A stretch of 64,000 nucleotides of DNA from Candidatus Thorarchaeota archaeon (GTDB lineage Archaea > Asgardarchaeota > Thorarchaeia > Thorarchaeales > Thorarchaeaceae): the NCBI GenBank assembly GCA_048882325.1, contig JBHLRS010000014.1:1-64000 (forward strand), read 5' to 3'. Made by a program: the position numbers and the translations under genes. The notes under the pieces are model-generated. The model worked only from the letters and a program-made list of their open reading frames with translations. It ran no database searches and was not told where the DNA came from. Below, piece by piece: positions 16,538 to 26,022 of the stretch (within the stretch, counting starts at the first letter, position 1; each line of letters begins with the position of its first letter).

Positions 16538-18694
16538 TTAGATCCAATCACCAGTTTCGAGTTTTCTCGGAAGATAATCATCTGTTAGGTACTCGAAGCT
16601 GTGGCTAGCAAATGCTTGAATCTCCGCTTTCTCTTTTAGTTTGAGCATCAGTTCTAGATCTTTTACCCATGGTTCGTTGCGCTTAACGAATGGCTCCTTC
16701 AGCATGTCCTTGACACGCTTGATGTCAGTTGGTTGCATTGGAATCCTAACAGATTTTGGAATCTTATATTCATCCAAATCTCGACTCAACACACCCAAAA
16801 GCTTCAGCTCAGGGGTGGCAATGAAAGGTGATTCGTAGCTCAGCCTCTTACTGCCTCGGAGGAACACAGAGTAAATGTAGTGTCCGTATGGATCAGAGTC
16901 AACAAGTGCAAAAGCAGGAATCTCCAGCTCCTTAACAAGCATTTTGAGGAAAGCTCGTGTGGCAATGTCTCCAGACCCCTTTCCAGTTAATACAATGCAT
17001 GGTTGTCGATTCCAGTACTTAGCTTCTGCAAGTCGCATAACAGCAGCATCCTTCTCAGAAAGAATAATGAACTCTGCATCACTCTCAACAATCTCCAGTT
17101 GGTCAAGGAAAGGAGTAACAGCCCATCCACCAGTTCCCATCTTCGTGAGGTCTATCAAATCGCCACCATCACGGATTGTCACTCTGCCCATAGCTGACCC
17201 ACGTGCTGATGCTACAACATGAATGCTGTCACGTGTAGTCTGAATCATTGAAGCAACATCTTCTATGATCTTGTCACTATACTTCTGTTCCCTGAATAGA
17301 TTCACGTCGCTATAGAAAACCTCTCGTTTCGTGGCATGAAGATTGGACTTAAGAAGATTGAAAACAATCTCCATGACCCGTGCAGTTCTGGTAGCGTCAA
17401 CAACTGAAGCAAGAGAATGATAAGGACGAGAGATAGTTCGCATCCCTAGAAGCAGAAGGTCTCGTATTTCATCCCAGACAATGTTGTCACTAGATCTACT
17501 AGGAATTTCGAAAGCCGGCCTACCACTCATCATTGTTTCATTTAGAATATCTAATGCAGTGTCTACGATGCGTTCAGTCGTGTCATCAGCTGTTAGACTC
17601 ACGACTTCAACAGTTTCAACCAAAGACTCAGGCAATTCACTTGGAACCTTGGGCTCTTCAGCCTCCTTCTCAGCTGTAGCCCAGTTCTCTTTCAATTCGA
17701 CTGCTAGTTCTTCAACAGCCTTAGGCACAGGCAATCCCGATTCCTTCTTGATAGCCTTTGGCTTCTTTTTCCTCGCTGGTGCCATCTTTTTCTTCGCAGG
17801 CTTTTTCTTCTTAGACGGTTTTTCCTTTGGAACAGCTTTCTTTCGAGTCGTCTTTTTGGTTGGCGTCTTTGGAGTTTCTTTCACAGCTTCATCCTTCTTC
17901 GGAGGTGTCTTTGTTTCTTTCATTGGCTTTGCAGCTACTACTACATCTGGTTCTACAGTTAACCTTGCCATTTCCTCTTTGTGAACCAGCTCCTTGGCGG
18001 CGCTGATGATCTTAGCTGCTTTTGCAGAACTTAGTCCATCTACTTTCTTAGCAACATTATTGGGTGATGCTCTCGCTATTCTAGCTACAGAGTCATATCC
18101 AGCCCGTTCCATTGATAAAGCGAGTTTGGATCCCAAACCGGGAACATCGGTAAGGGATAATTTTGGTGGAGTAACTTCATCAACTGATGCTTCAGCTTCT
18201 TCATCGGGTTTTTCAGGTGTCGAGTCTTTCTTCACTAAGTCTTTAGCTGCATCAACAAGCTTCTGAGCACCGGAGTTACTCAAACCCTCGACCTTCTTGG
18301 CGATAGATGCAGATCGCGCACGAGCTATCTTCTCAACTGTTTCATACTTTGCGTTCTTGAGTTTTTCTTCTAACTTTGATCCCACACCAGGTAAATCCTT
18401 CAAGCTGAAAGCACTCACTGGCTCGACAGGAATCTCTTTCTTCTTGGGTGATGTCTTCTTCTTGGACGGGGTCTTCTTCTTGGGGGGTGTCTTCTTTGTG
18501 GTAGTCTTCTTCGTAGTAGACTTCTTCTTTGAAGGAGTCTTTTTCTTTGAGGTAGATGTCTTAGGTTTTGAATCCGTTTTCTTTGTGGACTTCTCTGTGG
18601 ACTTCTTTGACTCTTGATCATCTATTACTTCGCCTAGAGTGGCCTGAACGGTTTCGGTTTTCTTCGCTGACTTCTTTGTCTTTTTCTTGCTCAT
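16538..18694 (-). CDS. top6A: DNA topoisomerase VI subunit A with long Lys-rich, tandem-HhH N-terminal extension
   Basis: TKREVFY (catalytic Tyr), TOPRIM SEKDA...TGKG...DSDPYG, KAEIQA. Overlaps the top6B stop codon. Confidence 0.93.
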   Translation of the reverse strand: MSKKKTKKSAKKTETVQATLGEVIDDQESKKSTEKSTKKTDSKPKTSTSKKKTPSKKKSTTKKTTTKKTPPKKKTPSKKKTSPKKKEIPVEPVSAFSLKDLPGVGSKLEEKLKNAKYETVEKIARARSASIAKKVEGLSNSGAQKLVDAAKDLVKKDSTPEKPDEEAEASVDEVTPPKLSLTDVPGLGSKLALSMERAGYDSVARIARASPNNVAKKVDGLSSAKAAKIISAAKELVHKEEMARLTVEPDVVVAAKPMKETKTPPKKDEAVKETPKTPTKKTTRKKAVPKEKPSKKKKPAKKKMAPARKKKPKAIKKESGLPVPKAVEELAVELKENWATAEKEAEEPKVPSELPESLVETVEVVSLTADDTTERIVDTALDILNETMMSGRPAFEIPSRSSDNIVWDEIRDLLLLGMRTISRPYHSLASVVDATRTARVMEIVFNLLKSNLHATKREVFYSDVNLFREQKYSDKIIEDVASMIQTTRDSIHVVASARGSAMGRVTIRDGGDLIDLTKMGTGGWAVTPFLDQLEIVESDAEFIILSEKDAAVMRLAEAKYWNRQPCIVLTGKGSGDIATRAFLKMLVKELEIPAFALVDSDPYGHYIYSVFLRGSKRLSYESPFIATPELKLLGVLSRDLDEYKIPKSVRIPMQPTDIKRVKDMLKEPFVKRNEPWVKDLELMLKLKEKAEIQAFASHSFEYLTDDYLPRKLETGDWI

Positions 18695-22694: not shown

Positions 22695-24257
22695 CTAGTC
22701 GTCTAATGCGATACCTTCCGCGATGCCTTCCATTCCTCCTGCTTCAGACTCCGGGAGGACATCATCACCTGGAATTTCAGAAGCAGCCTCTTCTGACTCA
22801 GGTTCTTTGGGAGGAAGCATAGCATCACCATTCAACCAAGCATCACTTTCAATCTCTGGAGCGGGATGTCTAAACCCGTGAATAATTAGCATGACGCCTA
22901 CGAAAGATATGACACCGCATGAGGCGAGGGTAAGTGGAAATCCAATGATGGTTATTAGCCAACCAAACAGAGCAATCTGGGGGATTGCGAACAATGTAGC
23001 AAGTGTTGGGAACAGTGAATACATAGAGTTTCTGATTCTGTTTGGGATGACATCGATCAAGACCCGCTGAGTCAGTATCTCAGCAAACCCGCCAAAGAAG
23101 CTCGTCGACACGAAAGTCGTGAATATCAGAACTATTGGCACAATGTTCTCAACAGGTAGAGTCAATAGCTGAATCGTTGTGAAGGGCCAGTAAAGCGTCA
23201 GGATGTTAGTGCTATCAGCAGCAGGAGGGAAGAAAGTCATTATAGCTGCGAACACCCAGAAGAAGATGAAACCACAAGTCTGCATAAGACGGAACCGTGG
23301 AATCCACTTCTTTGGCTCGAATCTACGGGACCAAACTCCGGATCGTTCCTGCGAGAAGATACCTGGAATGAAGAGTAGTGTTCTGAAGCTAGCAACCCCA
23401 ACATCAGTAATGAGATAGAGATAGTACATTGGGAACAGAATGAGGTTACCCCACACCATGATACTACTCACAGCCAACATTGTACCTATCGCGATATAAC
23501 GAACGAATGCATGTCTGAACAGATAAGACACTCCTCCCCTTAAGATAGAGAAGTACTCACCCATATCAGGACGTCCACCATTTTGTGCTCTTTGCTCTTC
23601 AACCTCTGGGAAATCGCGGACAAGTCTGAAGACCGCCATAGCAAATACAAAGGCTAGAATCCCCTGAACTTGAAATACCCAAGCTCTCGAGAATACTACT
23701 GCCAAGATTCCCCCAGGAATCAACGAGGCAGTCGAAACAATCTGCATGACCATACCCATTCTACCCCAAAAGACACCATACTGCTTCCTGTCATGGTCAC
23801 CTGGCATAGCTACTCTGTAGTTGTTATCAAACCAGGCGCCCCAAGCTCCGCTAGACTGTGACTGAGCAAAGCCCATCAGTGCGTAAACACCTATGAGATA
23901 GGGGAATGGCGTATCGACAGTAACAAATGAGATTAGTATGAAGACAATGCCAAAACAGATTTGAGCACCTGAGATGATATATCGCTGACCTATCCAGTCA
24001 CCAACTGCTCCGGTTGGGTAATCAAGCAGAATCTGTACAACCATCTGTACAACCACTAGAGTCCCAACAAGGCCCATACCCTGGAGATACATTCCTGGAC
24101 CCCCACCAAGTGCTTCAGCTACAAAGATCACGAAGAAAGTGGTTGATAGAGTAAATATGACATTGGCTAGTGGTCCCAAGATTCCCATTATTTTTGCCAG
24201 TCTGATGACCTTATCAGTGGCATCTGGCAAGCCGAGAAAGGATTTCATCCTACTCAT
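22695..24257 (-). CDS. MFS transporter
   Basis: About 12 TM helices; DYPTGAVGDWIGQR (motif A-like), SGAWGAWFD, IPNRIR; acidic tail. Confidence 0.9.
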   Translation of the reverse strand: MSRMKSFLGLPDATDKVIRLAKIMGILGPLANVIFTLSTTFFVIFVAEALGGGPGMYLQGMGLVGTLVVVQMVVQILLDYPTGAVGDWIGQRYIISGAQICFGIVFILISFVTVDTPFPYLIGVYALMGFAQSQSSGAWGAWFDNNYRVAMPGDHDRKQYGVFWGRMGMVMQIVSTASLIPGGILAVVFSRAWVFQVQGILAFVFAMAVFRLVRDFPEVEEQRAQNGGRPDMGEYFSILRGGVSYLFRHAFVRYIAIGTMLAVSSIMVWGNLILFPMYYLYLITDVGVASFRTLLFIPGIFSQERSGVWSRRFEPKKWIPRFRLMQTCGFIFFWVFAAIMTFFPPAADSTNILTLYWPFTTIQLLTLPVENIVPIVLIFTTFVSTSFFGGFAEILTQRVLIDVIPNRIRNSMYSLFPTLATLFAIPQIALFGWLITIIGFPLTLASCGVISFVGVMLIIHGFRHPAPEIESDAWLNGDAMLPPKEPESEEAASEIPGDDVLPESEAGGMEGIAEGIALDD

Positions 24258-24392: not shown

Positions 24393-24452
24393 TGCAACGG
24401 CCCTCGGATCACACGACGAGGGCCGCTGCAGAATCTCCAACTTAGGAGATTC
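24393..24452 (-). other. two abutting stem-loops in the leader of the P4/MFS unit
   Basis: Minus strand: GAATCTCC-N6-GGAGATTC, then TGCAGCGGCCCTCG-N10-CGAGGGCCGTTGCA (14 bp, fully paired with one G-U only on the minus strand). Confidence 0.7.
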
Positions 24453-24693
24453 GGAGATAGGAGATTTGTCTAGTGTAACTCTAATGTGAAATTGCATTGC
24501 TCTATTTGGACACGCCAAGACCGGCGTTACACAATGCTCCAAATGACTGGACACAAATCGTCTTGTCCCCACTGGCCAGGCAAGGCTGCTCCGTTGCGAG
24601 GTCTCCAGATAGTGTCATAGTCATCATCACGCTGTTTCTACCCCCAAACACAATATAGTTTGTGGGCCACACCATTTTCTATGAATGGTTTGG

Positions 24694-24710
24694 ATATAAA
24701 CATTTTTCTC
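24694..24710 (-). promoter_or_regulatory. putative BRE and TATA box
   Basis: Minus strand GAGAAAAA-TG-TTTATAT in an AT-rich stretch. Confidence 0.5.
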
Positions 24711-24802
24711 AACGCATTATTTTGTATCCCGCACTTAAAATCATAATTTTGTTTATATTTCAAACCAAAATTATACGGATTCGATGGGATACTCATTGAG
24801 AT

Positions 24803-24871
24803 CTACCTCCGAAAGTAGACAGCAGCTATTGCGTGGGTTGAGATCTTCTTTGCGTTGTTCTTCTTGACCAT
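24803..24871 (-). CDS. small cationic peptide P3 (MVKKNNAKKISTHAIAAVYFRR)
   Basis: Strong SD (AGGAGGT) inside the end of P2; shares THAI..Y.RR with P2. Confidence 0.65.
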   Translation of the reverse strand: MVKKNNAKKISTHAIAAVYFRR

Positions 24872-24876
24872 GCACC

Positions 24877-24972
24877 TTACCTCCTGTAGGTGTATGCATG
24901 TGTGATGGCATGTGTTTGAAGCACTCGTCTGTGCTTCAGCACAGTTCGGTTATCGTTCTTCGTTAGAGCCAT
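24877..24972 (-). CDS. small cationic peptide P2 (MALTKNDNRTVLKHRRVLQTHAITHAYTYRR)
   Basis: Paralogue of P1 with a near-identical start context, TTGTGAAAyATC-ATGGCTCTA. Confidence 0.7.
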   Translation of the reverse strand: MALTKNDNRTVLKHRRVLQTHAITHAYTYRR

Positions 24973-25016
24973 GATGTTTCACAACCTACTATAGGTTGGT
25001 CACATGATATGCTGTT

Positions 25017-25057
25017 TCTGAGACTATCTGACCAGTTCTGTGACCACTCTGTGACCA
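25017..25057. repeat. direct repeats with 10-11 bp period, TCTGTGACCA (2 perfect, 2 degenerate)
   Basis: Copies at 25017, 25027, 25037 and 25048; inverted copies at 24997 and 25288/25301. Confidence 0.6.
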
Positions 25058-25122
25058 GACCTTAGTCGTGTCGGGATCGGCAGAAATCAAACAGATTGTC
25101 AGATCAGCGCACATCACATCAA

Positions 25123-25230
25123 TCACCTAACGACGGTCATATACGCGTAAGTCAAGGCCTTGGTTGATAGTCCGCGACCTCTCTTGTCCTTCAGCACAGA
25201 TGTACCTCGTGAGTTAGTTGCTAGAGCCAT
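25123..25230 (-). CDS. small cationic peptide P1 (MALATNSRGTSVLKDKRGRGLSTKALTYAYMTVVR)
   Basis: TATA-like TATATATA at 25263-25270 upstream; paralogous to P2. Confidence 0.7.
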   Translation of the reverse strand: MALATNSRGTSVLKDKRGRGLSTKALTYAYMTVVR

Positions 25231-25395
25231 GATATTTCACAAGAAATACCACTCAGATTTAGTATATATAGCGGAGCCACTTCTTAGGGTCACAGAAGGG
25301 AGTCACATATTGTTACTACCATGTACCGCATAGACAAGCATATCAAGGTCAATCTTGGGCAAAAACACAACAAGTCGTGGAAATGTGATTCCAAA

Positions 25396-26022
25396 ATGGC
25401 TCCTGACGAACAAACCCGGCAACTAATTGATCATTTCTCTGAGGCCACTCTTCAAGAACTGAAAAGACAGTTTGGTGACAAAGGCGCATCGATGCACAAG
25501 CTCTTCACACGCCAATTCAAAATCCATTACAACAACTATGAAGCAATGCTGCCAAATCCCCTCGCAAAAAGACACGGCGTGAACTCTCTCTTTGTTATGG
25601 CAGTTGACGACGTGATGTGCGAGGTTAGAGCATCATTCTCTGAACTCAAACAAACCGTTCTTTCGATTTACAAAGCCATGCTCTCAGATTACTTCAAAGA
25701 AGAAGTTGCGAAGCTTGAGAAGCAAGATGACCCTTGGAGTGCTTTTGTCGGATGGGCGAGAAAAGGGAATGAGGTCAACTACAACAATGAGTACTTCCAG
25801 ATTGTCGAGGTTGATCAGGAACCTGGATGTTATGGGTTTGATATTCAGAAATGTCTCTACTTCCATATCCTAAGGGAGGCTGGCAAACCTGAGCTTGGAC
25901 CTATCATCTGCGAATACGATAGCTTGCTAGCTGCTGCAATTGAATCTTGGATAAGTTTCACCCTTCATGAAACTATAGCGACAGGAGATGAGAGGTGCAC
26001 ATTCCGGTATTGCAAGCAATAA
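25396..26022 (+). CDS. L-2-amino-thiazoline-4-carboxylic acid hydrolase-like (ATC hydrolase / V4R-like) family protein
   Basis: FDIQKCLY...GKPELGPIICEYD...TIATGDERCTFRY pattern. Start placed at MAPDEQ. Confidence 0.75.
   Translation: MAPDEQTRQLIDHFSEATLQELKRQFGDKGASMHKLFTRQFKIHYNNYEAMLPNPLAKRHGVNSLFVMAVDDVMCEVRASFSELKQTVLSIYKAMLSDYFKEEVAKLEKQDDPWSAFVGWARKGNEVNYNNEYFQIVEVDQEPGCYGFDIQKCLYFHILREAGKPELGPIICEYDSLLAAAIESWISFTLHETIATGDERCTFRYCKQ

Follow-up and report, generated by a model that had tools for sequence, protein, structure and literature searches.

Three short open reading frames on the minus strand of a Thorarchaeota genome, P1, P2 and P3, are coding genes under purifying selection, acting at the protein level on their C-terminal core only. 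They belong to a peptide family that is real, conserved and undescribed, whose function we infer. The three genes lie in a 64,000-nt stretch of DNA, referred to here as the window, and were re-found with the coordinates and sequences given in a first-pass annotation (Table 1); their shared start context and core are also as earlier described. The accompanying argument that their length differences are multiples of three is trivial, being true of any ORFs. Family peptides, mostly three at a time, are found upstream at 21 loci orthologous to that of the MFS gene in the window. These loci preserve start, stop and frame, so that the pattern expected of a noncoding element, with nucleotides kept while frame or start and stop codons are lost, is not seen. 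Across the 17 orthologous three-peptide loci, dN/dS over the last 13 codons of P1, P2 and P3 is 0.20, 0.17 and 0.13, against 0.73, 0.61 and 0.35 over their N-halves, whereas the core in shifted frames gives 0.85-2.5 among the 12 closer loci, all values being pairwise Nei-Gojobori counts in which shared history is over-counted. Because core values are low and shifted-frame values high, selection acts on the core amino acids, and the coding signal that the first-pass annotation proposed to look for is present.

An HMM of P1-P3, iterated once against the 57,455 small ATG ORFs of the genome, retrieves six further copies with E ≤ 7e-9, and the next, unrelated match stands at E 0.42. These six copies are spread over three more loci, which makes nine copies at four loci with P1-P3 included. 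A regular expression of the core motif matches the genome eight times but never matches any of five shuffles. With a 51-sequence profile, the family is present in 81 of 86 genomes of the same Thorarchaeota family, with 1-14 matches each, including 23/23 high-quality genomes and 16/16 genera; some genera have a single detected copy. Among other Asgard genomes, 1 of 191 matched, at E 0.003, which is the chance expectation. The relatives and MFS synteny that the first-pass annotation suggested checking are both found, the former in Thorarchaeota and the latter at the 21 peptide-bearing orthologous loci. Divergent peptides also occupy cassette positions (L119, L126, L127, L108, L163, L082, L088), with endings such as YYEYYRRLN, LYAYTYFRR or EVYRTSF.R, and the family is larger than counted because the profile mostly misses them.

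A search of 1.84 billion representatives returned mostly short family members, the other matches being translated CRISPR arrays and one 2,655-aa match without a significant stretch. Four multi-repeat proteins matched by the profile, P0017, P0018, P0027 and P0039, looked like multi-core precursors but were rejected as such. P0017 and P0018 (L094-L097), annotated as proteins in public assemblies, are translated CRISPR arrays beside cas3/5d/csd1/7/4/1/2 genes, as judged from their contigs, and P0027 and P0039 contain the repeat of these two. The peptides have no match in Pfam, NCBIfam or, at E ≤ 5, PDB, and this, with their presence in 81 of 86 genomes, bears out the earlier suspicion of an undescribed conserved family. 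Their best Atlas score, 0.87, corresponds to low recognition, and the cluster members checked are unnamed or called "hypothetical protein". No published description was found in the literature searched, the coverage of which is incomplete.

The 168 distinct peptides consist of a basic, Asn/Lys-rich N-half usually starting with MAL, a core of consensus [IQVL]-S-T-x-A-[ILV]-[TA]-[YH]-A-Y...R, and a C-terminal R or RR. Within the core, the Ala is invariant and always stands 9-11 residues before the stop, the Thr is conserved at 93% and the Tyr at 87%. An aromatic-x-aromatic motif occurs in most A-type copies, and the first aromatic of [YH]-A-Y is missing in P3-type copies. Mean net charge is +4.9, no hydrophobic stretch or signal region was found in the peptides (mean best 11-residue hydropathy 0.63), and the mean hydrophobic moment of 0.20 indicates weak amphipathicity. 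AlphaFold predicts one helix, with the highest pLDDT (84) over the core. Two known kinds of motif were rejected, namely a Class III signal peptide, for which both a hydrophobic helix and a conserved G/A at position -1 are lacking, and a proteasome HbYX tail, matched by one subtype only. A resemblance to a regulator helix, of the kind that mimicry would produce, can be noticed by eye.

In 147 of 170 distinct peptides, the last codons form an SD motif and an ORF starts 3-8 nt past the stop, whereas an SD lies over the stop in 2.4% of ordinary long ORFs of the genome. Such an SD inside the upstream gene is a described feature of archaeal translational coupling (PMC6728339). In the window, P1 ends with SD-like AGGTGA, and P3 starts 5 nt after the P2 stop with the last codons of P2 as its SD. 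Uncoupled copies have an SD-type AGG/AGA last codon in 12/23 cases versus 145/147 in coupled ones, and their last residue is R or K in 23/23, a figure inflated by peptide selection with an HMM favouring a C-terminal Arg. Because R/K persists while the AGG/AGA codons drop, the basic C-terminus appears to be selected as protein too, and the idea of RR as a mere by-product of the SD is partly rejected.

Table 1. Features of the P1-P3 locus in the window, and related features located elsewhere.
Feature	Position	Strand	Description	Remarks
Operator 1	25301..25317	-	palindrome AGT[AC]ACA-N3-TGTGAC[CT]; extra half-site 25287-25294	kept at orthologous loci, C8 and C18; putative binding site
TATA box, promoter 1	25262..25271	-	30-32 nt after operator 1, spacing fixed across genomes	putative activity
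P1	25123..25230	-	35-aa family peptide, TVVR-ending subtype	core dN/dS 0.20, 17 loci
X1	24989..25114	-	41-aa bridging ORF	operator-1 half-site array at 25029-25057 and 24994-25004
P2	24877..24972	-	31-aa family peptide, Y-x-YRR-ending subtype	core dN/dS 0.17
P3	24803..24871	-	22-aa family peptide, YFRR-ending subtype	core dN/dS 0.13
X2	24638..24796	-	52-aa ORF 3' of P3	pN/pS 0.82, variable ends
Degenerate operator 2 and adjacent TATA-like box	24651..24673	-	consensus GGTTTG-N5-CAAACC	putative second promoter
X3	24502..24627	-	41-aa Cys-containing ORF behind operator 2, unrelated to P1-P3	pN/pS 0.34, 8 loci
Structured RNA, MFS leader	24393..24463	-	pyrimidine tract CTCCTATCTCC, variable hairpin, GC-rich hairpin (13-14 bp)	
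P4	24264..24371	-	35-aa ORF, stop 6 nt before MFS start	unrelated to P1-P3; closer relatives only
MFS_1 transporter	22695..24257	-	520 aa, Pfam PF07690	operator-1 set member, co-oriented with P1-P3
Tandem pair	C8 65463-65258		family peptides	found by HMM
Tandem pair	C18 39003-38809		family peptides	found by HMM
Tandem pair	C31 20142-19948		family peptides	found by HMM
Acidic companion peptide	L032:7698-7805			example
Acidic companion peptide	L033:7826-7942			example

P1-P3 had been placed upstream of the MFS gene. They are indeed co-oriented with it but not adjacent: between P3 and the MFS gene lie 545 bp in which other small ORFs, another operator with its TATA and an RNA structure under conservation are found. 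The locus is an elaborate form of cassette with P1, X1, P2, P3, X2, a second promoter-like element, X3, the RNA structure and the MFS gene. The X1 frame is retained in 12/12 close loci, yet its pN/pS is 0.67; since the operator-1 half-site array also precedes other regulon genes without peptides, constraint on X1 bears mainly on DNA. X2 is probably a by-product of conserved promoter DNA, and operator 2 of the window, at 24657-24673, is found within two mismatches in 22/22 orthologous regions. X1, X2 and X4 were set aside as functional peptides, their pN/pS of 0.67-0.89 being weak or neutral. X3, deleted in several relatives (L004-L007, L020), is a candidate for a separate small protein.

The RNA structure in the MFS leader (z = -7.1 versus shuffles) is unique in the genome, and its main hairpin is kept in 20 loci. 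The tract CTCCTATCTCC is invariant and anti-SD-like, the hairpin loop GTGTGATC is SD-like, and a translational switch is possible. Rfam holds no family for it, the only hit being sub-threshold sR39 (20.8 bits, where the gathering score is 50). Among named sequences, the MFS protein has its nearest relatives in Ca. Thorarchaeota (84-90% identity), and a paralogue at C5 has operator 1 without peptides. The ATC-hydrolase-like gene noted earlier on the divergent side is only a neighbour, found at 17 of 24 MFS-orthologous loci, and was rejected as a part of the system, being absent from every other cassette locus (0 cases). Its longer ORF (25321-26022, plus strand) starts 4 nt from operator 1, and the true start is probably 25396, a later ATG conserved in relatives. 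Elsewhere in the window, visual inspection pointed to a topoisomerase VI A-like gene (16538-18694, minus strand), whose catalytic part is preceded by a fused extension made of a long Lys-rich N-terminus and repeated helix-hairpin-helix-like segments.

Cassettes from other loci and genomes, 61 in number with the window type left out, typically comprise an operator, a TATA box, one to three helix-tailed basic peptides, then an acidic peptide or another gene, often MFS. An acidic companion peptide with a 3' hairpin terminates 35/61 of them. This peptide of 34-39 aa, unrelated to the basic ones and without any Pfam match, has an acidic end and the consensus L-[TS]-x-x-E-V-L-x-L-E-A-T. Its last eight codons double as the hairpin, which includes the stop and is followed by a U-rich tract; 83% of cells are paired, with 20 compensatory cells, versus at most 47% in slid controls. 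The next gene is convergent in 35/61 cassettes and co-oriented in 24/61, and neighbours are mostly housekeeping genes varying by locus. Nine of the 61 cassettes lead into an MFS gene, six of them at a 6-nt gap; two different MFS families are co-oriented with cassettes, and one of these is coupled at 6 nt. As the first-pass annotation had remarked for P1-P3, no modifying enzyme is adjacent: none, whether radical-SAM or P450, is conserved within ~5 kb of the 61 cassettes, one unrelated CxxxCxxC gene and no P450 motif being found, and there is no conserved immunity gene near them. No conserved protease stands beside the cassettes either, an S41 gene occurring at one locus.

An 87-nt promoter block holding operator 1 is nearly identical ahead of the P1, C8 and C18 cassettes. 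The exact operator-1 pattern occurs in 39/41 family genomes, with 0-1 matches per strand for the reversed control. Cassettes apart, operator 1 stands ahead of a bactofilin-like gene (~420 aa) in most of the sampled genera, ahead of MFS genes, whether peptides are present or not, and, in this genome, ahead of the gene of a large GNAT protein. In several genomes, operator 1 is found as well ahead of a 369-aa multi-pass membrane repeat protein without Pfam match (L100:5079-6188, G000 C5). At nearly all examined loci that combine operator 1 with the bactofilin-like gene, the two are immediately preceded by a single-copy HTH_45 winged-helix gene (about 37184-37500 of C28), and from this adjacency its product is the best candidate for the operator-1 binder. 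This regulator, seen with the bactofilin-like gene at L101:5747-7600 (G000 C28), is present in 36/36 family genomes, is 67-95% identical across the family and has an invariant C-terminal tail. Because operator 1 is common to the cassettes and the bactofilin-like gene, the gene set suggests, by analogy, a programme of cell shape, envelope or dormancy. In haloarchaea, relatives of bactofilin have a role in shape transitions (PMC11459167).

The cassette that is most widespread and most conserved has operator 2 (GGTTTG-N5-CAAACC) immediately beside its TATA box and is divergent from a family-specific ArsR/PH1932-like regulator (C31 20462-21229). The range of this regulator equals that of the peptides (35/36 family genomes); the orthologue has operator 2 and a cassette, whereas its paralogues are without operator-plus-TATA and cassette. 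Its model matches 1ULY/2CWE (PH1932, ArsR-like) at E 2e-7, and also PadR, with no TPR. At the same locus, in many genera, tandem profilin-like genes adjoin the regulator (L033:9245-10089). A complex prediction combining a family peptide, the ArsR-like dimer and HTH_45 scored 0.00, which speaks neither for nor against binding. Assignments of regulators to operators rest on gene adjacency, and operator binding and the sign of regulation are inferred.

Cassettes occupy the same syntenic loci in many species. In a comparison based on similarity rather than trees, with kin genomes that are not independent, promoter plus first peptide are 0.84 alike within a genome versus 0.77 at the same locus of different genomes, and the nearest copy is in the same genome in 22/32 cases and at the same locus in 3/32. 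One genome holds five almost identical cassettes. Dispersed copies of one genome are thus closer to each other than orthologous copies are, a pattern of concerted evolution that argues for gene conversion or for their repeated replacement. The first-pass annotation does not mention the operators, the other loci, the acidic companion with its hairpin or this concerted evolution.

The reading that we favour, at a little under an even chance, is that P1-P3 are intracellular microproteins made in bulk and acting in trans, the C-terminal helix docking on a conserved partner. A transcription factor, with HTH_45 as the best candidate, would bind operator 1 just upstream of the TATA box and activate as one set the peptide cassettes and the genes of the bactofilin-like protein, the multi-pass membrane protein and MFS transporters, a programme of cell envelope, shape or stress, whereas the most conserved cassette would be tied instead to operator 2 and the divergent ArsR/PH1932-like regulator. 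Ribosomes would then move from peptide to peptide via the SD motifs in the last codons, allowing co-production in fixed ratios, with the multiple homogenised copies providing dose. The basic N-half would be loosely constrained, and the C-terminal helix of ~12 residues would dock in a groove of a conserved protein and modulate it, the leading guesses for this partner being the MFS transporters transcribed with the peptides or, in a feedback, either of the two regulators. Many cassettes, among them the most conserved one, are followed by no gene that they could regulate, and 35/61 end in the acidic peptide with its hairpin and U-tract; the peptides themselves are therefore probably the product. 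An intracellular modulator is favoured because the peptides would have the form usual for binding motifs, a short helix whose small and aromatic residues are fixed, attached to a disordered basic tail. RiPP synthesis and ordinary secretion are disfavoured, as neither a signal sequence nor a conserved enzyme or protease is present. The link to MFS may amount to no more than co-regulation, since 9/61 cassettes lead to MFS and operator 1 precedes peptide-free MFS genes.

Other explanations account for part of these features. An exported quorum-sensing-like signal would leave through the co-regulated MFS, lose its N-half by cleavage and re-enter as the C-terminal 11-14 residues that bind the ArsR-like regulator; the conserved divergent regulator-peptide pair of matching range, the MFS linkage of cassettes and the conserved C-terminal core behind a basic, variable N-half all agree with such a cycle. 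It is nonetheless unlikely, as the peptides have no hydrophobic signal region (hydropathy 0.63), the regulator fold is PH1932/ArsR plus PadR rather than a TPR peptide receptor, the core diverges little between kin groups and is similar over the 16 genera, and proteases beside cassettes amount to the S41 gene at one locus. The prospects are poorer for cis-acting leader or arrest peptides, in which a ligand-dependent stall of the terminating ribosome would decide whether translation re-initiates on the following ORF or how the 3' hairpin folds. With the Ala 9-11 residues from the stop, the motif would be inside the exit tunnel at termination, the SD over the stop with an ORF 3-8 nt on (147/170, against 2.4% of long ORFs) suits re-initiation, the stop of the acidic peptide lies within a hairpin, and one locus type chains directly into MFS. 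A co-oriented gene after each copy, as expected of leaders, is found at MFS-linked loci including the window, but not overall: 35/61 cassettes face a convergent gene, which varies by locus, the most widespread cassette is among those without a co-oriented gene, and multi-copy homogenisation suits dosage rather than local control. The simple leader-peptide proposal of the first-pass annotation is weakened accordingly.

There is a small chance that the family consists of structural or protective bulk peptides (SASP-, chaplin- or PSM-like) coating nucleic acid, membrane or the bactofilin-like polymer in a dormant or shape-shifted state. Up to 14 copies under concerted evolution, the net charge of +4.9 and an operator common with the bactofilin-like gene, whose relatives scaffold haloarchaeal shape transitions (PMC11459167), would fit, whereas the weak amphipathicity (moment 0.20) and the single detected copy in some genera would not, and the strict small-residue positions suit a specific groove better than a general coat. 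RiPP precursors, also proposed earlier, or unmodified multi-peptide antimicrobials are very improbable, even though tandem paralogous precursors lie beside a transporter and most A-type copies carry an aromatic-x-aromatic motif, so that a stand-alone enzyme could introduce a biarylitide-like cross-link at [YH]-A-Y. Indeed, no conserved modifying or immunity gene is found near the 61 cassettes, the first aromatic is missing in P3-type copies, the near-universal vertical presence differs from that of a biosynthetic cluster, and conservation runs opposite to the leader/core pattern (core 0.13-0.20, N-half 0.35-0.73).

A broader reading, which we regard as rather speculative, is a multi-component Asgard system in which basic helix-tailed peptides and an acidic partner, produced in fixed ratio by dispersed, gene-converted operons, form the effector or signal layer of a regulon that would also build a bactofilin-like cytoskeleton, and thereby a peptide-controlled switch of cell shape or dormancy. 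If true, this switch would be clade-defining and without described counterpart in archaea. To our knowledge, gene regulation is almost wholly uncharted in Thorarchaeota, uncultured relatives of the eukaryotic ancestor. The present analysis adds a near-universal unannotated gene family with up to 14 copies per genome, along with two candidate pairs of operator and regulator and a small candidate regulon in which microproteins are joined to transporters and a bactofilin-like polymer. It is unusual for dispersed genes of 100 bp to evolve in concert, and this implies that recombination within the genome is frequent and that dose is needed. The parts of the system are small enough for culture-free study with synthetic peptides and purified regulators.

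Several known systems share features with the family. In shp/rgg and phr/rap, a peptide gene is paired with a transcription regulator, as in the most conserved locus here, where the peptide gene is divergent from and co-distributed with a regulator; however, TPRs are absent from this ArsR/PH1932-like regulator, the peptides carry no signal sequence, and several of them are encoded per operon. TnaC is a termination-site arrest peptide. Such peptides can be compared in PMC11890864, and SD-assisted termination-reinitiation in PMC6728339. The family resembles the TnaC type by a motif at near-fixed distance from the stop and by an SD in the 3' end of the upstream gene, whereas most cassettes here are without a regulated downstream gene. 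Biarylitide-type RiPP precursors are 5 aa long, with a [YH]-x-Y motif and a P450. Many copies here have [YH]-x-Y, but the motif is not universal, no P450 or other enzyme is nearby, and the peptides are 22-38 aa instead of 5 aa.

The PSM operons of staphylococci encode tandem cationic helical peptides of 20-45 aa at several loci, under one regulator and without signal peptide; PSMs are strongly amphipathic and exported by an ABC exporter. The P1-P3 family has the same tandem multi-locus organisation, but its moment is 0.20, it is MFS-linked, and its copies are homogenised across loci. SgrT and MgtS are small-protein modulators. Others are AcrZ, acting on AcrB (PMC7267776), and AzuC (PMC8915982). 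The family is like these four by a size under 50 aa, one short helix, a putative co-regulation with a transporter and a proposed action in trans; no sequence match was found. AcrZ-type modulators are single-copy and often transmembrane, whereas P1-P3 and their relatives are basic, look soluble, occur in tandem at several loci and have an acidic companion. In organisation the family is close to PSM operons, and in action possibly to AcrZ/SgrT-type modulators, but it is a member of neither group.
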